Shown here one piece after another: positions 861 to 64,000 of a stretch of 64,000 nucleotides of DNA. The stretch is taken from contig JAQGDQ010002367.1 in the NCBI GenBank assembly GCA_030141605.1, forward strand, positions 930,001 to 994,000, given 5' to 3'. Within the stretch, counting starts at the first letter, position 1. The number at the start of each line of letters is the position of its first letter. Under the pieces are notes generated by a model. It did no database searches. It saw only the letters and a list, made by a program, of their open reading frames with translations, and was not told the DNA's origin. Origin of the DNA: Tubiluchus corallicola. Taxonomy: Eukaryota; Animalia; Priapulida. A program made the translations under genes and the position numbers.

Positions 861-1039
861 GTTACAGAGGCTGGGACTGCACTGATTCTAGTCACGCTTT
901 AACAGACGGTCAGCTCATAGCTAATACGTTACTACTTACATTGAGTAATTTGTTTTTCATACCAGCTGTGATACTAGCCATCTACAGGAAGTACTACACT
1001 GAAGCACTGGTTTACTTTGTCACCATGTTTTTCTCAACG
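861..1039 (+). CDS. TMEM8: TMEM8/PGAP6-family membrane protein, internal exon (end of EGF-like domain plus first TM helices); upstream exons lie outside the window
   Basis: ttttag|GT acceptor and ACG|gtaaga donor; encodes GYRGWDCTD...[14 protein letters not shown]...[13 protein letters not shown], matching the TMEM8 GW.CTD / LTLSNL.F.P signature. Confidence 0.92.
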
Positions 1040-2378: not shown

Positions 2379-2639
2379 TTCTACCATGCTTGTGACGAAG
2401 ATGTGTATTACTACTGCCTCATGCGATACACTGTCTTACAGTTCTGTGATTTCTATGCTTCAATCATGTCATTCTGGGTAACTCTAATTGCCATGGCCAA
2501 ACTCAACTGGACATTGCGGTCACTTTGTCACATGTTAGCGGCTATATGCATTGCCCTAGGTGTAGCGTATGACCGCACAGGTCTGTGGGTGTTTGTGGTA
2601 CCGGCTGGTGCTGGATTAGGAATTATGTTGACATCGTGG
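2379..2639 (+). CDS. TMEM8: TMEM8/PGAP6-family internal exon (CREST SxxxH and D motifs)
   Basis: tttcag|TTC...TGG|gtaagt, 87 codons, phase 0; FYHACD...LQFCDF...SFWVTLIAMA. Confidence 0.93.
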
Positions 2640-2971
2640 GTAAGTAAAACTGATTTTGCAGGATCAAATGTCATAGAATCATAAGACCGGTGACATAAAG
2701 TCACTTTTTATCTTTGTTTAAAAATATGTGAATTAATCTCACCATTTTTTGTAATAACAGTTATTGATTCTCTCAGTAGCTATTCATTTTATTTATAAAT
2801 GAAAAATAGTTTTCTTTCTCATGTTTTGAGAAATTCACAGTCATTACACCTGCTTTTATAAAATGGTTTATTGCTTCAATAGCTTCAGTTGTACTTGTTG
2901 TCTAGTTGTATTTTAATCACCATTTTAAGCAGGTGTTATTTCATTGTGACGTAGGTGTCCATTGGTCTGCA

Positions 2972-5665
2972 CATAGGTTAGTTAGGTCTTGTCTAGCCAT
3001 CACTCGGCATTCAGGTTACTTAGGCTTTGTCCAGCCATCAGTCTGTAGTTAGATCAGTTAGGCCTTGTTCAACTGTCAGTCGGCAGCTAGATCAGTTAGA
3101 CCTTGTCCACTCAGCAGTCAGGGTTCTTAGGCTTTGTCCAGCCATCAGTCGGCAGTTAGATCAGTTAGGCCTTGTCCAGCTATCAGTCGGCAGTTAGATC
3201 AGTTAGGCCTTGTTCAACAATCAGTCGGTAGCTAGATCAGTTAGGCTTTGTCCAGCCATCAGTCGGCAATTAGTTCAGTTAGGCCATGTCCACCCACCAC
3301 TCGGCATTCAGGTTACTTAGGCTTTGTCCAATCATCAATCTGCAGTTAGATCAGTTAGGCCTTGTTCAACAATCATTCGGCAGGTAGATCAGTTAGGCCT
3401 TGCCCAGCCATCAGTCAGCAGTTAGATCAGTTAGGCCTTGTTCAACAATCAGTCGGCAGCTAGATCAGTTAGGCTTTGTCCAGCCATCAGTCGGCAGTTA
3501 GTTCAGTTAGGCCATGTCCACCCACCACTCGGCATTCAGGTTACTTAGGCTTTGTCCAATCATCAATCTGCAGTTAGATCAGTTAGGCCTTGTTCAACAA
3601 TCATTCGGCAGGTAGATCAGTTAGGCCTTGCCCAGCCATCAGTCAGCAGTTAGATCAGTTAGGCCTTGTTCAACAATCAGTCGGTAGCTAGATCAGTTAG
3701 GCCTTGTGCAGCCGTCAGTCGGCAGCTAGGTCAGTTAGGCTTCGTCCAGCTATCAGTCGGCAGCTAGATCACTTAGGCCTTGTTCAACAATCAGTCAGCA
3801 GCTAGGTCAGTTAGGCTTTGTCCAGCCATCACTCAGCAGTTAGATCAGTTAGGCTTTGTCCAGCCATCAGTCGGCAGTTAGATCAGTTAGGCCTTGTTCA
3901 ACAATCTGTCAGCAGCTAGGTCAGTTAGGCTTTGTCCAGCCATCACTCAGCAGTTAGATCAGTTAGGCTTTGTCCAGCTATCAGTCGGCAGTTAGATCAG
4001 TTAGGCCTTGTTCAACAATCTGTCAGCAGCTAGATCAGTTAGGCTTTGTCCAGTCGGCAGCTAGATCAGTTAAGCCTTGTCCAACCATCACTCAGCAGTT
4101 AGATCAGTTAGGCTTTGTCCAGCCATCAGTCGGCAGCTAGATCAGTTGGCCTTGTCCAGCCCAGTCAGCAGTTAGATCAGTTAGGCCTTGTTCAACAATC
4201 TGTCAGCAGCTAGATCAGTTAGGCTTTGTCCAGTCATCAGTCGGCAGCTAGATCAGTTAGGCCTTGTCCAGCCATCAGTCGGCAGCTAGATCAGTTAGGC
4301 CTTGTCCAGCCATCAGTCGGCAGTTAGATCAGTTAGGCCTTGTCCAGCCATCAGTCGGCAGTTAGATCAGTTAGGCCTTGTCCAGCCATCAGTCAGCAGT
4401 TAGATCAGTTAGGCCTTGTTCAACAATCAGTCGGTAGCTAGATCAGTTAGGCTTTGTCCAGCCATCAGTCGACAATTAGTTCAGTTAGGCCATGTCCACC
4501 CACCACTCGGCATTCAGGTTACTTAGGCTTTGTCCAATCATCAATCTGCAGTTAGATCAGTTAGGCCTTGTTCAACACTCATTCGGCAGGTAGATCAGTT
4601 AGGCCTTGCCCAGCCATCAGTCAGCAGTTAGATCAGTTAGGCCTTGTTCAACAATCAGTCGGCAGCTAGATCAGTTAGGCTTTGTCCAGCCATCAGTCGG
4701 CAGTTAGTTCAGTTAGGCCATGTCCACCCACCACTCGGCATTCAGGTTACTTAGGCTTTGTCCAATCATCAATCTGCAGTTAGATCAGTTAGGCCTTGTT
4801 CAACAATCATTCGGCAGGTAGATCAGTTAGGCCTTGCCCAGCCATCAGTCAGCAGTTAGATCAGTTAGGCCTTGTTCAACAATCAGTCGGTAGCTAGATC
4901 AGTTAGGCCTTGTGCAGCCGTCAGTCGGCAGCTAGGTCAGTTAGGCTTTGTCCAGCTATCAGTCGGCAGCTAGATCACTTAGGCCTTGTTCAACAATCAG
5001 TCAGCAGCTAGGTCAGTTAGGCTTTGTCCAGCCATCACTCAGCAGTTAGATCAGTTAGGCTTTGTCCAGCCATCAGTCGGCAGTTAGATCAGTTAGGCCT
5101 TGTTCAACAATCTGTCAGCAGCTAGGTCAGTTAGGCTTTGTCCAGCCATCACTCAGCAGTTAGATCAGTTAGGCTTTGTCCAGCTATCAGTCGGCAGTTA
5201 GATCAGTTAGGCCTTGTTCAACAATCTGTCAGCAGCTAGATCAGTTAGGCTTTGTCCAGTCGGCAGCTAGATCAGTTAAGCCTTGTCCAACCATCACTCA
5301 GCAGTTAGATCAGTTAGGCTTTGTCCAGCCATCAGTCGGCAGCTAGATCAGTTGGCCTTGTCCAGTCAGCAGTTAGATCAGTTAGGCCTTGTTCAACAAT
5401 CTGTCAGCAGCTAGATCAGTTAGGCTTTGTCCAGCCATCAGTCGGCAGCTAGATCAGTTAGGCCTTGTCCAGCCATCAGTCGGCAGCTAGATCAGTTAGG
5501 CCTTGTCCAGCCATCAGTCGGCAGTTAGGTCAGTTAGGCTTTGTCCAGCCATCAGTCGGCAGTTAGATCAGTTAGGCCTTGTCCAGCCATCAGTCAGCAG
5601 TTAGGTCAGTTAGGCTTTGTCCAGCCATCAGTCGGCAGTTAGATCAGTTAGGCCTTTTCCAGCTA
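2972..5665. repeat. 38-bp minisatellite array (about 70 units) in a TMEM8 intron, with higher-order repeats
   Basis: Consensus AGTTAGATCAGTTAGGCCTTGTCCAGCCATCAGTCGGC; diagnostic variant AGGCCATGTCCACCCACCAC recurs at 3281, 3509, 4487 and 4715. Confidence 0.97.
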
Positions 5666-6643
5666 GTCATTTATTATCATAGTGACTAGGGTGTCACTTA
5701 AGTGCAGTGAATCGCACTTGTCTACAAGTTAGACCATAATGTTCTCCTAATGGATAATTACGTTAGTCATTCTCGTCAATCATGCACCAGAAAAACCATC
5801 TGGAAAGTTCCCTAATTCTTATTATAGGCACTTATGCAGCTAATGAAATGAGAGAAATTCTTTACTTTATTAGACAAAGTTAGACATTATATAGGGCAAA
5901 ACCCATTTTTTAAAAAAATAACGATCTTGACATTAACTATACTAAATGAATTGACAATTGAAATCATCATCCCTGGCTTAGAAGGACTTCACTTGAAATA
6001 GAACTTCACTTGACTTCACTTGACTATCAGCTAAGACTGGCTTGTCACTTTTAATGCACAAAGTTTTGACAAAGCTTTTGTTGTCTTCTTACCATCACAA
6101 TAAGTACTTGCTTACTTTAAATATGAGTCTATTATCTCTTTCTTGAACTGCTTCTATCCATTGTTTGATTTTGCCTTGTGTTTTGATCCTAGATGGCAGA
6201 AGTATTTTTCAAAAGTAAGAACACACTGAAGGAAGTTAGGCAATGTATCGTGCTCAAAAACGTCTAATAGTCAGGTCTGATTTGGGTCAAGCCTCAATCA
6301 AAGTCAAGTGTTACATTAAACTTCTTTTTTATATGCTACTTTAGTGGAAGGTGCTCTAAGAATCTCTCATCATTTTTGCGATGCATATGACCATTCATCC
6401 CCACAAATGACAAATTATTAAAAATCTTTGTTACTTTGCAAGAAACAATATTTCTTTTTTAACTGCGGGCTTTGAATATGTAAAGTAGATTCTGCATCTG
6501 TATGTATGTGGCATATGTATATGTATTATACTGAACACTGAAGAGCCTGAGTAATTACAGTAAATATATATATATATATACTCCTCTTATTGGCTACACA
6601 ATTTACTAAGATTTTTCATCAGTATATTGTGATGTTTTTACAG

Positions 6644-6934
6644 GGATTCAAGTGCTATAGGCAAAAGGCGTGCTATCCTAACCGATGTCAGTATTTGTTA
6701 CTTCTACCCGGTGTGGCACTAGCTGGTACTGGACTAATCATCTTCGCTTTTGTGGAGACTGAGAATAACTATCAGTATGTTCATAGCGCTTGGCACATTC
6801 TCATGGCCACCTGCATTCTCTTCATGCTTCCTGAGAACGATAAAAAGACGGTTGCTAGCAATCAATCGTCTGCCGAGGAGTTGACCGCCGACATCTCCAA
6901 TACGGACATGGCTAGTTTACTAGAGGATAAATGA
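6644..6934 (+). CDS. TMEM8: TMEM8/PGAP6-family last coding exon (HxxWH motif), ending at a leaky-context TGA
   Basis: ttacag|GGA acceptor, phase 0; CYP...LLPG...ETENNYQYVHSAWHILMA...LP; TGA at 6932-6934. Confidence 0.92.
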   Translation, partial: GFKCYRQKACYPNRCQYLLLLPGVALAGTGLIIFAFVETENNYQYVHSAWHILMATCILFMLPENDKKTVASNQSSAEELTADISNTDMASLLEDK

Positions 6935-7105
6935 CAATTAGTTGAATATAGGCCCCTTAGACATAGTCACAGTTCAGCGCTGACAATGGTTGCTGGTACA
7001 AGTCAATCAGACATGGCTGATACGAACCGAAACAGTGCTGACACTGATGTTGTAAGCTTGACCATTTCTCTTCCCATTGACAATAATGTAGTGGGAGAGT
7101 CTTAG
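6935..7105 (+). other. Candidate stop-codon readthrough extension of TMEM8 (56 sense codons, then TAG)
   Basis: TGA-CAA-TTA context; open in-frame QLVEYRPLRHSHSSALTMVAGTSQSDMADTNRNSADTDVVSLTISLPIDNNVVGES*; 14-bp stem 6943-6956/7162-7175. Confidence 0.7.
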
Positions 7106-7430
7106 TCAGTAGTCAAGGCTATTTCAATAACCAGCTTAATACAAGAGGTAAGATCTTGTTTGGGGCCTATATTCACAATTAGGAATGTAAATTTAGGAAA
7201 TAAATTCAATTATGTGAATAATCAGTCTGTAGTAAAGAATCAGTTGTAATAGCTGAGATATTTTTATCAGAGGTGTTATGCAATCATGTGTTTTTGCATA
7301 TGCAATTTTACTATTGTTGTGGTGGCAGACTGGCTTACACAGTCATGTGTTAATTAGCAATTTAAAAAAACATAAATTTTATCATTAATTCAAAAGTCAA
7401 GTAACAAGTTGAATGCTAGTGATTTTAATG

Positions 7431-7592
7431 GTGCCTTTAGATGTAGCGACTTCTTTCGCAATCTCTCTGAGAGTAAAGTTGCAACATGTGAAAGATTTGG
7501 CAACTTGTTGCAACATGTGAACGGCTTGGCAACTTCTCACAGAGGGAAGTTGTGCAACAAGCTGCGAGAGAAGTCTCTACCTCTGAACACGC
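7431..7592. mobile_element. Small palindromic MITE-like element in the presumed TMEM8 3' UTR
   Basis: Imperfect inverted repeat TTAGATGTAGCGACTTCTTTCGCA vs reverse complement TCAGAGGTAGAGACTTCTCTCGCA; internal GTTGCAACATGTGAA duplicated. Confidence 0.55.
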
Positions 7593-8997
7593 TATAAACT
7601 TTACTGTTTTCACACACAGTTTTTTTTAGTGTTAACTGAGCTTATAAAAATAATTCCTCAGAGAATTGCAGCACTTGTAAAATTCTACGGAACGTTTAGT
7701 TGGTTTTGTTTTTTTGTTTTTTTTTGTTGGCAGTGTAAGCTTACTAACATTAGTATTCAGAACTTCACTTGCTCCTTTTAAGAATAAATCTTGTATATAC
7801 AATTTACTGTATATATTGTACATAAAAACATTCAAACATTTTAACTGCGATCATACTCATGATTACGTTTTATGCCAAAGAAGCGAAAAATATGCTAAAC
7901 CGTCTTGCCCACTGCCAAATTATTTAAATTGTTGTGTTCAGATAGTACACATGCTGTCAACTTTGCAATTTTGCCAAATTTTATTGTAAGTTTAATAAAC
8001 CTGTAGCCAAATTAGAAATCACAAATCATAATTTTTCCAGTCCAGTGGTACATTTTAAAGAGAAATAATATGGATATGATGAAGCTTCCATATCTTTCTA
8101 ATGTATAAAAACACTGCCAGTCAAAATTGTGAACTAGTCATCCTTACAAAGGTCTAATGATAGTGCTGGAAAACTTACCTTAAGTTTTTTATTAATCAAT
8201 CAGAGTATCAAATTAGATGTGGGCATGCATGCATGATAAGTATGCATATTTGTTGAGTAGTTATTAATGAATAATGAATAGGTGATGCTTATGATTCAGA
8301 TAAGTTTATACAATTCAATTAGACACGCTTTTTTGTGCAAGAACTCATTAAGGTCTTAGTGTATTCTTGAACTTATTTTGCAGATTCTTTTACATCTAAT
8401 GCTATATGTATAACAAAGAGATTATACTTAAAATTTGAAATCATTGTAGACATACTTTATTTAACATTATACAGTCATTTATACCTAGCATTTGTGGTGC
8501 TATTTCAGAAAAATCATTTTGCTGTTTTTTTTCATAATTTTTTTCTACCACAGTTTATAACCCATATAGAAAACACTTCCTTGCAGCAACATGAAGTTAG
8601 ATTATATGTTGTGCGTGTGGATTTTCACACTCAGATTTTTAGACTTTTCTATGTCATGCAGCTAAGGATGTAGCTTTTATTAAAAGTTACTGACATTAAA
8701 TAATCTAATGATTTTCTGTTCTGATTGCACTGCCTGTTACGAAATCACTGTTTTGCTTTGTTATTTAAAAATAGCTTTTTTTAAGATGAATGAGTCAAAA
8801 CGTACGTTCCTTGGGATGTTTCTCATTTTATTTTGACTAGCCCTCTAGTCAGTGCAATTCCCACTTTAAAAATGTGTTTTTTGTTTTTATATCTGAGATG
8901 AATTCATGTCTTGAAAGCTTCCTGTGGACAACTTTGCACAGTTAATTTACAGTTATCAAAACATTGTCATCTTTTTTCATCACTATTGTCAATATTG

Positions 8998-9023
8998 TCA
9001 TCATCATCATCATCATCATCATC
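8998..9023. repeat. (TCA)n microsatellite
   Basis: Direct reading of tcatcatca... run. Confidence 0.9.
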
Positions 9024-54749: not shown

Positions 54750-57700
54750 ACAACTGATACATACTCAAGCTTTGGCCGAACCAGTTTTTTATACAGTGTT
54801 GGTTATACCAATATCCAGGAAAAAGGCTGTTGATATTTGTGCTAAACGTAATACTTTGATGTGCCCTGCAGTTTAACTTCTACAGAAATTGCTAGTTGAA
54901 TTGCTTGTGATATTTGTAAAAATAGTGGCATAAAGTTTGTGCACTTATGTTCTTACAAAGATTTGGTGAAGTATAAAAAATATAAAATTGATTTTGTTTG
55001 TGCTATTTGTGTTCCTGGTAGAAAGTCATCTAACAAGGAGCCGGATTCACAGGATACAAGTGACATCGTTCAATCTTGCGAAAATAAACTTGACCATTTG
55101 ATTTCTGTTCTCTTTGAAAATTTTAGCTGTATAGCAGACATTTCTTCTAATAGTTCTAGTGGCAGCAGTAGTTACTCTAGTGGCAATGGCAATCTTATTT
55201 CATCAAGTAATGCTAAGAACTTTTATAAAAATTGTTGTGTTTATAGTTTAGACAGAATTGTAGTTGTAAATAAAGTTGATGACCTTTGTGCCTTTAAAAA
55301 CAGTGCTGCTATAATAAAAGAATTGAAGAAGATTCCTTACATCTCCCAAAAAGTTGAATTGGCACATAGCTTAGCTGGTGGAGGTATTGCCCTTTATACT
55401 CATTAGGGTGAATCTGCTTCAGATATCATCAGTCACTGGCCTCGAGGTCAAGTGTATGGTAGTTCAGTTGTAGTCCGTCTGCCAAAGCGTGCTGATCCTA
55501 ACGCAAAATCTAATGTTTGTTACATTAAAAATGTACCTAGAGACAATTACTGGGATAATAATTGTGCAGCAGCTAAAAAAATCTTAATTTTCATCGGAAA
55601 AAGTTTCATGAGCGAAATCTTCCCCAGAACAAATTTAAATTGTTGGAAGCAGAAGTATGTTTTACTTACGCAATTGACATTGCTCTCCTGTTTTTGAGGA
55701 TTCTTGAGAAATTTGATATTCTTCAAAATTGTTTTTTGATGTAAAGCATATCTGCCAAAGAAATTTTGATGATAGTTTCAAAAGAAATGTTGAGGAAAAG
55801 CTAGCTTCAAAAGATGTTTGTCCAGCAAGGTCTGGAATTCATTGTTCTTTTGCACTAAAGGAGTATATAATGCAATTAGCCACTTGAAGGCAAGTAAATC
55901 ACCTGGTCCTGATGAATATCCTCCTGGGTTATTTATACACTGTGGGAGCAATTTGAAGCACATATTATTGAAGAGTTTTAAGTCATGGACCAATAGAATT
56001 CTACAGACAGCTTGGACTTGTGCAAATGTTAAGTTCATCAGGAAACAAGGCAAGGATGACTATTATGTACCCTCTTTTTATTGTCGTATTAACTTGACAT
56101 CATTCATTTGTAAAATTATGGTAAGATTAGTACTTTTTAAATTAAATACGGCAATTGATACATATAATATAATAATACTGATACACAACAAGATGGTTTT
56201 AGGAAGTTCTGTTCTATAATTCACCCTGTTTACGACTTTGTACAAACTATATGTGATGGCTTTAATAATGCTAATCAAACAGTAGCTTGTTTCTTGGATT
56301 TGGAGAAAGATTATGACCGTGTATGGCGAGATGGACTTCCTATCAAGATATATAATGTTCGCATTGCTGGCAGATTACAGTATGGATTAAAGGTTTCTTA
56401 TCAAACAGACATGCTAGACATCTGATTAATGGCTATCAAGGGCCAGTATTGCTTCTTCTAAGGGATTACCAAAAGTGAGTGTTATTTCAGCATCTTTATT
56501 CAACATTTTCATAGCTGAAATATGTTCAAGTCTGTACAGGAAAATCATTGCAAGCATGCAGATGATGGTACTTTATGGCACACTGATTCAGGTGTCATCA
56601 GTCTAGCTTCATTAGTTTGTTCTGATGTGGAACATATTATTAACTGGCGTTCTTTATGGCATATGTCACTTAATTTAAGTAAAACTGAAGTTACTGTGTT
56701 TAGTAGAGTTCCTAATATACTACCTAGTAATTCTCCTTTTTGTGTTTATAATGTGTTGTTAGAGCAAAATCAATTTCCAAAGCTACTTGGCATAACCCTA
56801 GATAAGAAATTAACCTTTCATCCCCCACACTGTCAAACTATGAATGAAAGCTAGCAAAGTTCCTTCAGTCGTTAGAGAAATAAGAGGTATTGTTAATATT
56901 TCAACTTTGTATAAATAAATGCCTTGTTTGTTCATTGATGAAATATGGTGTCATATAGTTAAACGCAAGGCTTTGTCTTTATGTCTTGATCTCCCTTCGA
57001 CTGCTGGTGTTGAAGTATTGGAGGTTGTTAGTAGTGTACCTCTGTTACAGAGCTTGCAAAAATTGAATCAAAACCACTATCTAATCCTCTGAAACAACAA
57101 CTAGAAGATTTTAAAGCAGTTGGTTTGGGTAATATCAGATTTGTTTCTCTTAAGGCAAAAGCTGCTTCTTTGGCATGGGAGGTGGAGAAGAACTGGAATG
57201 CTATTATTTCTCAAGTGGTTCCGGCAGTTGATTTCGATCTAAATGACAATTTTACAGATATTCCTGTGGCTAAACCTAACTATTGGAATGTACTAGGATC
57301 CTCAAACAATAGGTCAGAGAAGCACAAGAACTTCTTGGGAAAGCCTTTGTTATAAATTCTTTATGCAGTCTTTCAGATAATGCTGTTTTAGCATTTACAG
57401 ATGGTTCTTGTACAGACAATCCTGAACAATGTGGAACAGGAGCAGTAATTTATTCAAATATTCACAATTAATCTTTGTAGCTACAGATACTAAAAATGTT
57501 ACAGTTTTTTCAGATAGTAAATCTTCAGTAGCATTGTATCTTTAGGATGATCTTGTAACTGTTACGAAGATCTACATGACAGCATAAAAATTATGTTAAA
57601 TTTCATTATAGTATTGATATTCATGTTAACTTCTTTGTATAGATTCTTGGACATCGTAATATTATTAGAAATGATCTTACTGATTCCTTCACTAAAAGGG

Positions 57701-61952: not shown

Positions 61953-62636
61953 CTACATAAGATCCGGGAACAAGTCTGAAAAAGACTCTTGCCAAGCTTC
62001 TTCATCAGTAGCTGGGGATGCTGCACTTACAGGTGAGCCAAGATCACTTTCACCTGTGCTATACCCAGATTCCGAAGACGTGTTGGGCGACTTGCCATGT
62101 ATTCCAGGCGTGTTTAAAGGTGAACACGAAGACAACATATTATCCCATATGCTGGGATTGTAGTGCGTATTAACCTTTAATGGAGTGTTAATATCGGTTG
62201 ATAGTTCACTACGAATTCCTTCAATACCGGTACAGGATACATTAGAAAATCCACCAGATTGCAGAAAAGAATCAAACTCACTAAGATCAAGATCCATTAA
62301 TTCTGAAAAATCATCAGTTGATGGCAAAGTATTGCCAAGTTCTGTGTATTCTGTAAGAGAATTTCCTCTATAAAGTACATCGACTTCTGAAGAAGTGTCT
62401 TTGTTAGCACTATAATTATCATTAGTGCAACTGATATCCTGATCGACAATGGAAACACTTTCCGCTTCTGTTTTTACTTCTTCTTCATGATCAATTGAAG
62501 TGAGCTCATCGGCATTTTCAGCCTTGTAGTAAATGTGGTCGAATCTTATGAATTCATTGATGGCGTCCACATTCTTTGGTGTGCTCCCCACCATTTTATG
62601 ATTGGATTTAAAACGCTTGTCTTCAACTTTGGCATT
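61953..62636 (-). CDS. XBP1: XBP1 last exon, spliced (XBP1s) frame: acidic transactivation domain
   Basis: tttcag|AAT acceptor; INEFIRFDHIYYK, SESGYSTGES, WQESFSDLFPDLM* are XBP1s signatures; in frame with the upstream exon only after removal of the 23-nt intron. Confidence 0.96.
   Translation of the reverse strand, partial: NAKVEDKRFKSNHKMVGSTPKNVDAINEFIRFDHIYYKAENADELTSIDHEEEVKTEAESVSIVDQDISCTNDNYSANKDTSSEVDVLYRGNSLTEYTELGNTLPSTDDFSELMDLDLSEFDSFLQSGGFSNVSCTGIEGIRSELSTDINTPLKVNTHYNPSIWDNMLSSCSPLNTPGIHGKSPNTSSESGYSTGESDLGSPVSAASPATDEEAWQESFSDLFPDLM
62546..62636 (-). CDS. XBP1: XBP1 unspliced (XBP1u) frame C-terminus, arrest-peptide-like
   Basis: Overlapping frame reads MPKLKTSVLNPIIKWWGAHQRMWTPSMNS* (TAA 62546-62548). 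Confidence 0.85.
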
Positions 62637-62951
62637 CTGAAATAAAAATGATTTATAAATATCTTGCTAAATTGAAACACTCAACGTAACAGTAAAAGTA
62701 GAATCTTAAAATCCAGATACAAAAACTTTGCCGTCACGCACACTTCTACATGTGTATTTGTGCACAAGAAATTTATTAAAAATAGCTAAGACAACAGCTG
62801 ACATTCAACAAGTCCTTCAGTTTTCTTAAAAATTTAAACAGCCTGACTCCTGACAAATTTAAACTGATCATACAGTATGTCAAAAATGAACGCAATACGG
62901 ATTTTACAAATATATCTTTTACAGTTTTAAGAGATAAAATCGCCAACAAAC

Positions 62952-63256
62952 CTGCTCTGACTGTTCAACTTCATCATCCGTTTCAGACGAAAGTCCGTCA
63001 ACGATGAAGGATAAGAGATCTCGCTCAGTACAATCAGGAACAGAAACGTTACTGAAAATGCCATCCAATGAGAGACTGCACGAGCCTGCTCCTGCTGCAG
63101 AGGAAGCATTTTGAATACTGCGGATTCAACTGACTCGTCCTTTCTCTCACTGGGGACATCATCTACACCCAAACGCTTCTTCAGTATTGCGTTTTCACCA
63201 CGCAGCAACTTAACTTCGTCTGTAAGTGCTTTGTTGTCAGACTGTAATGATCGATT
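62952..63256 (-). CDS. XBP1: XBP1 exon: end of leucine zipper, IRE1 splice region, HR2; basic-region exons lie beyond the window end
   Basis: acag|AAT ... CAG|gtttgt; NRSLQSDNKALTDEVKLLRGENAILKKRLG...ESAVFKMLPLQQEQ. Confidence 0.95.
63098..63120 (-). other. 23-nt unconventional IRE1-excised intron of XBP1
   Basis: CCG^CAGTATTCAAAATGCTTCCTCTG^CAGC; two hairpins with 7-nt CNG^CNGN loops (TTGAAT/ATTCAA and TCCT/AGGA stems). Confidence 0.95.
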
Positions 63257-64000
63257 CTGTAAAAATAAATTAAAGAGAGTTTATAGATAAAAGAAAAAAC
63301 CTAAAAATTGCAAAAAATACAGTAAACTATATATAACTCCAACTGGTATAACAGAATTCTTGCGCATCTCGAACAGATACTCGTGGAACAAATTTTTTTC
63401 CTTTAACAAGCAACTCGAAATCTCTAACTGAAACCGAAATCCCGGTCCAATTCTTAAGAATCTGATTGAAATTGCCTCGCTTATCTCGAACAGCCTCCCA
63501 AGCAAGAAGTCCTACGCAAAAGTGTGCACCACATTATGCTAGTTTCAGCAAAAATGCTAAAATTTCTTGTATTACCTTAGCAGAGCATTGCAAACACCAC
63601 GGCTCAACGAACGTGGTTTAATGTAGATCACAATATTGTTATTGCAAAATTGTTAAAACCATGCTACTCAGACTACAATAAAGGTGGGTCAGTCATTTTA
63701 TTTTTGGTTTGTGTTAGGTATTTGATTAAAGGCTTAGTTTGTCACTTTCGCAGGCTGTAGTGTTACTAGTGTATTGTCCGACACTGATGAATGACTCAGT
63801 CTTGTTTTCTTACGAACATCGTCTTACTCGTACTTTCGCATAACTCAAACAAATTTTCCGGTCCCGAGGTGTTTAAGTTAAACGTAGCTTACTGTAGTGA
63901 TCAGTTTAGCTCTTTTAAATTCAACTTTTGTGATGTTTTGACCAATTTACTCCGAGTCAATTGTCAGATGTGATAATGTCATAACGAAAAAATCAGCTAA

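Follow-up and report, generated by a model that had tools for sequence, protein, structure and literature searches.

Whether the last coding exon of a TMEM8/PGAP6 gene ends in an ordinary stop codon, or in one that some ribosomes pass, is the question raised by this locus. The window, i.e., the whole 64-kb stretch of DNA that was analysed, carries a TGA at the end of that exon, followed by an open frame and by two distant, complementary arms. The UGA-CAA-UUA sequence, taken together with the 14-bp stem that the arms can form, probably constitutes a programmed readthrough cassette of TMEM8/PGAP6.

The TMEM8/PGAP6 Gene and Its C-Terminal Tail

The window contains only the last three coding exons of the gene (Table 1), the remaining 5' exons being located outside it. 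All three exons were matched by PF12036 in a Pfam profile search. The best homologues are invertebrate TMEM8A/B proteins, with at most 69% identity among the matches listed. The homologue search yielded 434 candidates, 290 of which were found at E 1e-15, and the figures rest on 120 of these 290. TMEM8/PGAP6 proteins are part of the CREST superfamily, characterized by the PF12036 membrane domain with a His3-Ser-Asp site. They combine seven membrane helices with a large extracellular domain, and it is this N-terminal domain that sets TMEM8A/B apart from myomaker (PMC13562381). PGAP6 itself is a GPI-specific phospholipase A2 (PMC13562381; PMC5147002). The superfamily site can be recognized by eye in the translations, as STFYHACD and HSAWH. 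Given this membrane topology of the family, the C-terminal tail is presumably cytosolic.

The tail of ORF1 carries a dileucine-like motif, DMASLL (DxxxLL), three residues ahead of the TGA (motif scan), and resembles by eye the C-terminal ends of one group of arthropod homologues. A pattern count over the matches listed identified a [ST]D[LFM]xxL[LIV] ending in 14 of the 102 homologues with the last HxxWH motif. This resemblance to homologue ends, with DMASLL only three residues before the stop, suggests that the protein normally ends at the TGA rather than being cut short there by a premature stop. In a tree of 44 TMEM8 proteins, the window protein is placed without support; it joins neither the clade of crustaceans nor that of three insects, and one long-branch damselfly row is its weak neighbour. 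The last intron of the gene consists mostly of a long degenerate tandem array (2950-5650), with units that measure ~30 nt by eye.

Table 1. Coordinates of the features at the TMEM8/PGAP6 locus, in positions of the window.
Feature	Position	Strand	Basis or remark
Third-from-last coding exon, TMEM8/PGAP6	861..1039	+	PF12036, E 7.5e-12; tblastn with homologues; GT/AG borders
Penultimate coding exon, TMEM8/PGAP6	2379..2639	+	PF12036, E 8e-25; GT/AG borders
Last coding exon of ORF1	6644..6931	+	PF12036; last membrane helices and tail
First stop, TGA 6932-6934, then CAA-TTA hexamer (leaky context)	6932..6940	+	Sequence
In-frame second ORF	6935..7105	+	56 codons and TAG 7103-7105; Ser/Thr/Asp-rich
Stem, 5' arm	6943..6956	+	14 nt, 8 nt after the stop; also codes part of VEYRPL
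Loop between the arms	6957..7161	+	205 nt; second stop inside; predicted to fold
Donor-like AG/GTAAGA, candidate intron start 7148	7146..7153	+	AGGTAAG, one of five sites on the + strand
Stem, 3' arm	7162..7175	+	14 nt, 57 nt past the second stop
First AATAAA after the stop	7199..7204	+	24 nt beyond the 3' arm (motif scan)
Acceptor-like poly-T and CAG, candidate intron end	7710..7733	+	One of 12 such sites on the + strand

The Leaky Stop and the Extension Frame

The sequence-only reading had called the stop leaky, and this is supported by the hexamer directly after the UGA: CAAUUA is a readthrough stimulator of the tobamovirus type (PMC13517186; PMC3159437). The CAATTA at 6935-6940 corresponds to the tobamovirus-type CARYYA signal, with UGA instead of UAG as the stop; CARYYA occurs at 135 of the 53,800 background positions.

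The extension has an exon-like GC content of 43.5%, compared to 29.8% downstream. Its third-position GC of 0.34, on the other hand, counts against a coding extension, as it reaches 0.49-0.52 in the exons. A frame open for 56 codons was found in 39 of 1076 background windows. One YxxL motif, YRPL, was identified in the extension by motif scan. No meaningful homologue of the extension was found among 1.84 billion representatives; in flies, the extensions made by readthrough are typically conserved over short evolutionary distances only (bioRxiv 10.64898/2026.07.13.738141, as far as available). The tail and the extension together retrieved a single protein at E up to 0.001, which was rejected as a low-complexity match (4489 aa, nine matching stretches). 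A splice acceptor at TAG 6939-6941 was rejected by eye as well, having no pyrimidine tract and yielding only 13 codons.

Past the second stop, the frame is open for 47 further codons (7106-7249). In X5, a diverged sample described below, insertions of +1 and +2 restore this frame, and no stop is present in the covered part. The open frame 7106-7249 is probably due to chance, the alternative being double readthrough.

Anatomy, Folding and Rarity of the Long-Range Stem

The sequence-only reading had also described a perfect 14-bp stem, starting 8 nt after the leaky stop of TMEM8, enclosing about 200 nt with a second stop and reaching with its 3' arm beyond the coding sequence. This anatomy was recovered throughout (Table 1). 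The arms are 100% complementary, and the TAG lies inside the 205-nt loop that separates them. The stem had been said to continue on both sides. Both extensions do exist, but they are marginal, with pair probabilities of 0.23-0.38 for AGACA/TGTTT and ~0.35 for AATT/AATT; the outward AATT/AATT pairing competes with another outer register.

The proposed folding of 6930-7185 gave -83.7 kcal/mol (z -5.05), a value equalled by 0 of 200 shuffles. In folding windows of up to 1 kb, 13 of the 14 pairs have a probability of at least 0.90, and the outermost U-A pair has one of ~0.6. The 205-nt loop on its own folds modestly (z -2.43, equalled by one of 200 shuffles). Because the first AATAAA is located past the 3' arm, an unspliced mRNA would contain both arms. 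The donor-like and acceptor-like sites on either side of the 3' arm count against the readthrough reading.

Seven perfect inverted repeats of at least 12 bp, with loops of up to 300 nt, are present in the 64-kb window, and this stem is the longest among them. A perfect stem of at least 14 bp, at a spacing of 4-15 nt and with a partner within 400 nt, was obtained in one of 3000 dinucleotide shuffles; the same features were found at one of 4750 window positions, by position the TMEM8 site. The joint chance of hexamer and stem amounts to ~8e-7 per stop, or ~0.02 for an assumed 25,000 genes, under criteria chosen post hoc, with the site already seen. The stem feature is real and far beyond chance. 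Moreover, the arms are not an assembly error, since a sequencing run from another study (X3) has identical letters across both of them. A degenerate pattern of the stop and the 5' arm had no match in metagenome contigs. The Rfam scan returned three weak matches, none of them relevant.

Comparison with Other Samples and Distant TMEM8 Loci

Six sequencing runs (X1-X6) were compared, none of which is on record as RNA. X1 and X2 are a possible source of the window, and X5 is another sample with the same species label. X5 differs from the window by 18 letters in 6675-7069, and by seven letters and three inserted ones in 7087-7221. Of its 25 substitutions, 20 are known by position; 7070-7086 is uncovered, and the two contigs have depths of 6.2 and 3.2. 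About 21% of the synonymous sites of the CDS are changed. All 10 listed changes in the CDS are synonymous, so that 10 of 48 synonymous sites differ and 0 of 174 non-synonymous ones. In the extension, four of the five listed changes are synonymous (4 of 22 synonymous versus 1 of 79 non-synonymous sites; Fisher p 0.008). Two more changes, probably situated in 7030-7069, have no listed position; if both were non-synonymous, p would become 0.049. A frame test that fixes the types of change gives P 0.02 for frame 0, compared to 0.53 and 1.0 for the other frames; the value for frame 0 weakens to 0.13 if both unlisted changes are non-synonymous. At the synonymous rate of the CDS, ~21 changes per 101 nt would be expected in a neutral extension, compared to the five that are listed. 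In this one diverged sample, the in-frame ORF thus appears weakly to show conservation of the coding type (p 0.008-0.13).

The stop itself is kept in X5. Its contig covers the TGA far from the contig ends, and no change is listed in 6932-6956. At the second stop, which is too near the end of a contig, no change could have been listed; both insertions are located 3' of it. One change is listed in the 3' arm, C7166T, which turns a G-C pair into G-U and keeps the pairing; it comes from the contig of depth 3.2 and is possibly an error. The X5 version of the region still folds the stem. In this one diverged comparison, no two-sided compensatory change was found in the arms, and the 3' arm is conserved no better than its flank (1 of 14 versus 4 of 38 changes, p 1.0).

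Among 97 candidate stretches screened, 25 are TMEM8 relatives, all too distant for covariation. Five of these 25 probably end at introns and not at true stops (tails of 0-12 residues). Neither the hexamer nor a perfect stem of more than 8 bp was found at any of the 25 loci. Four near-identical, insect-like loci (L006-L009) have a G-U-rich 13-bp stem 8 nt past a TGA-G stop. In L006-L011, this stem follows the TGA at 1816 (1570 in L009), with a partner ~230 nt off. It was rejected as compatible with chance, as 67 of 2375 background positions reach 13 and the second ORF has seven codons; L010 and L011 break one of its pairs.

Relation to Known Readthrough Systems

In alphaviruses and Drosophila kelch, readthrough stems of 10-14 bp start 8-12 nt past the stop and enclose loops of 101-268 nt (PMC3159437, as far as available). 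The geometric likeness that had been proposed holds, as the 8-nt spacer, the 14-bp stem and the 205-nt loop all lie within the published ranges. The locus thus has the stop, stem, spacer and loop of a long-loop stem cassette of the alphavirus/kelch type.

Drosophila kelch is, like the window locus, a cellular gene with a UGA, an 8-nt spacer, a 14-bp stem and a loop of 200-270 nt (268 nt in kelch). In kelch, however, the stop is UGA-AUG and the second ORF has 788 codons (PMC5100048), compared to UGA-CAA-UUA and 56 codons here, and the window 3' arm is situated beyond the second stop, unlike that of kelch. The kelch stem has conservation in 12 species and truncation reporters behind it (bioRxiv 10.1101/2020.06.22.165522), the window stem one comparison. 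The nsP3/nsP4 junction of VEEV and SINV shares UGA-C, a spacer of 8-12 nt, a basal stem of 10-12 bp and a long foldable loop with the window. It differs in being viral and in having both arms in coding sequence, and compensatory mutants have proven its function. Arm mutants and compensatory rescue demonstrated a roughly tenfold increase in readthrough due to the VEEV stem, and placing CAA-UUA ahead of it in a reporter increased readthrough from 7.6% to 10.1% (PMC3159437). UGA-CAA-UUA with a stem, an engineered construct in VEEV, is natural in the window. Tobamovirus and benyvirus sites have the same CAA-UUA directly after the stop, and in benyvirus a stem follows as well, with a spacer of 9 nt (PMC3159437). 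Unlike the window, these sites mostly use UAG, and a stem is either lacking or takes the form of a local hairpin.

Within the TMEM8 family, AGAP002672 of Anopheles gambiae, the orthologue of Drosophila CG13654, is a readthrough candidate (Jungreis et al. 2016, Supplemental Data S1, PMC5100048). CG13654 is a PF12036 protein. Mosquito and window genes have in common the family, a predicted readthrough extension and a stop followed by C. In AGAP002672, the context is TAG-C and the extension has 101 codons, no RNAz structure is given, and the fly orthologue is classified as 'ambiguous' (PMC5100048). From the last HxxWH to the stop, ~26 residues are found in dipteran proteins and ~50 in the window protein; therefore, the two stops are probably not at the same place. 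In the available part of the literature, readthrough of TMEM8, PGAP6 or TMEM8A is reported only for the AGAP002672 candidate, and related supplements may list more. Judging from titles, the listed part of the CG13654 literature contains no readthrough paper, and the available part of PMC5868278 mentions TMEM86B only.

Alternative Explanations

Readthrough might be driven by UGA-CAA-UUA alone, with the stem being incidental or serving another role in the 3' UTR, such as stability or localisation. CAA-UUA works without structure in pomoviruses and at tobamovirus-like sites (PMC3159437), readthrough persists through the gain and loss of structures, and no RNAz structure is given for the Anopheles orthologue (PMC5100048). 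The 3' arm, being no more conserved than its flank, also agrees with this explanation. It is nevertheless unlikely, as no other stem of this class in the 64 kb is as strong, the spacing of 8 nt is that of known stimulators, and the single change in the arms keeps the pairing. A different explanation takes 7148-7733 as an intron of the 3' UTR, which would remove the 3' arm. The stem would then be an exon-intron duplex of the pre-mRNA, modulating the donor or serving A-to-I editing. The edited base would be either A6950, which stands in a UAG context, or the A of the stop codon, where UGA would become UGI and be read as Trp. The donor-like site that had been pointed out at ~7148 is indeed present, as AG/GTAAG at 7146-7152. 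An acceptor-like site follows 586 nt away, with an AATAAA (7783) 50 nt after it, X5 still has a donor-like sequence there (GTGAGA), the two candidate splice sites enclose a multi-copy repeat, and the second stop is located 42 nt upstream of the donor-like site. Against this, the donor-like site is not within the firm stem, and X6, a run whose RNA nature is a guess, has contigs on part of the candidate intron (7173-7336) and on 7920-8066. X6 was given little weight because none of its contigs covers the coding exon and a loose end at 7336 looks odd. The stop is unlikely to be edited, since its A is outside the firm duplex (best pairing 0.32), and the 5' G is a poor context for ADAR. The hexamer and the 8-nt spacing would be left without explanation, and a role of the stem in splicing or editing is accordingly doubtful. 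As a separate observation, the loose end of the X6 contig after 7336 resembles 7180-7190, as if a 157-nt tandem duplication were present in X6.

That the stop is not read through at all, with the arms due to chance or left as terminal inverted repeats by an old small DNA transposon and the open frame incidental, is very unlikely. An 8-nt direct repeat (6934-6941 and 7175-7182) surrounds the arms like a target-site duplication, frames as long as the extension are open in the background at the frequency given above, and the criteria were chosen post hoc. However, the left repeat is 2 nt off its arm, and the right one is mostly explained by the outward pairing. Each source run has one contig on 6860-7450 at 80% likeness, whereas the repeat at 7460-7600 draws many, and no close copy of an arm is present elsewhere in the 64-kb window. 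Neither of the marks of a MITE, a multi-copy family and an abutting target-site duplication, was found at 6860-7450. The synonymous excess in the extension favours translation. The 7460-7600 element is in itself a multi-copy interspersed repeat of the TMEM8 3' region, with internal palindromes and many contigs per run. It is most improbable that the UGA encodes selenocysteine, in which case the stem would be a Sec redefinition element and a SECIS would be located further 3'. Stems close behind a Sec UGA are known, as in SEPN1 with its 6-nt spacer (PMC3159437), and a loose SECIS grammar is matched twice, at 8157 and 9025. These matches are, however, short, unfolded patterns, the Rfam scan of 6500-9000 found no SECIS even with E values of up to 10 admitted, and homologue tails show by eye no conserved Cys at the corresponding place.

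Proposed Mechanism

In the preferred explanation, programmed readthrough, the stem likely stimulates readthrough of the stop codon, and the protein made by a minority of ribosomes would be 57 residues longer at its C-terminus. The mRNA entry channel takes up 11-12 nt after the A-site codon, and spacers of at least 8 nt are read as placing the structure so that termination is delayed (PMC13517186, as far as available). With the UGA in the A site, ~11-12 downstream bases would occupy the channel, and the first few pairs of the stem would be opened inside the ribosome, leaving the GC-rich stretch GGCCCC/GGGGCC to meet its leading edge and delay termination. Meanwhile, the hexamer would weaken decoding by the release factor, and a near-cognate tRNA would sometimes win and insert a residue at the UGA. 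Near-cognate tRNAs insert Trp, Cys or Arg at this codon. The 3' arm, located beyond the second stop, would be free of coding constraint.

Motifs of the YRPL type (YxxL) and the DMASLL type (DxxxLL) are sorting signals. It is speculative that, in the extended protein, a shift of DMASLL by 57 residues inward and the gain of YRPL alter the sorting of the enzyme. Less plausibly, an optional 3' UTR intron at 7148-7733 carrying the 3' arm could act as a splicing switch of readthrough. Intron-retaining mRNAs would form the stem and give the extended enzyme, and spliced mRNAs would lose it.

Other Features of the Window

A Pfam scan of 65 ORFs in the window left 63 without a match. On the - strand, 62930-63280 and 61956-62666 form what we take to be an XBP1-like bZIP gene, for which Pfam gives bZIP only at E 0.21; a search with the XBP1-like exon had no match. 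A 23-nt stretch at ~63120-63098, between CCG/CAG and CTG/CAG motifs, resembles an IRE1-cleaved intron, and a second ORF of 237 codons lies downstream of it. Exons matching a leucine-rich repeat (PF12799; 44094-44387, +) and Spo12 (PF05032; 58395-58631, -) were also identified. Broken ORFs at 54900-56854 (+) look by eye like a decayed non-LTR retrotransposon and have no Pfam match at E 0.001.

Significance of the Cassette

Well-documented examples of readthrough stimulated by structure come from viruses and flies. Abundant readthrough is regarded as restricted to insects and crustaceans (PMC5100048, as far as available). The window TMEM8 groups with neither insect nor crustacean proteins in the tree, in a placement without support. 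Recoding of this kind is known, and for the mosquito TMEM8 it has been predicted before. The probable cassette departs modestly from known cases, in that CAA-UUA and a long-loop stem occur together naturally and in that one arm is located past the second stop. The window nonetheless offers an unusually clean natural cassette, a CAA-UUA hexamer with a perfect long-loop stem, short enough to be directly testable by reporter. The structure screens in fly and mosquito used 100-nt windows (PMC5100048). Screens of this type would miss such cases, because the 3' arm is ~230 nt away from the first stop.

Since a second lineage has a predicted extension, the comparison suggests that the TMEM8 tail is a repeated target of readthrough. 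If the splicing switch were true, readthrough would have arisen repeatedly in TMEM8/PGAP6, with the mosquito and this lineage gaining their extensions independently, and these extensions would tune the sorting of a GPI-shedding enzyme.
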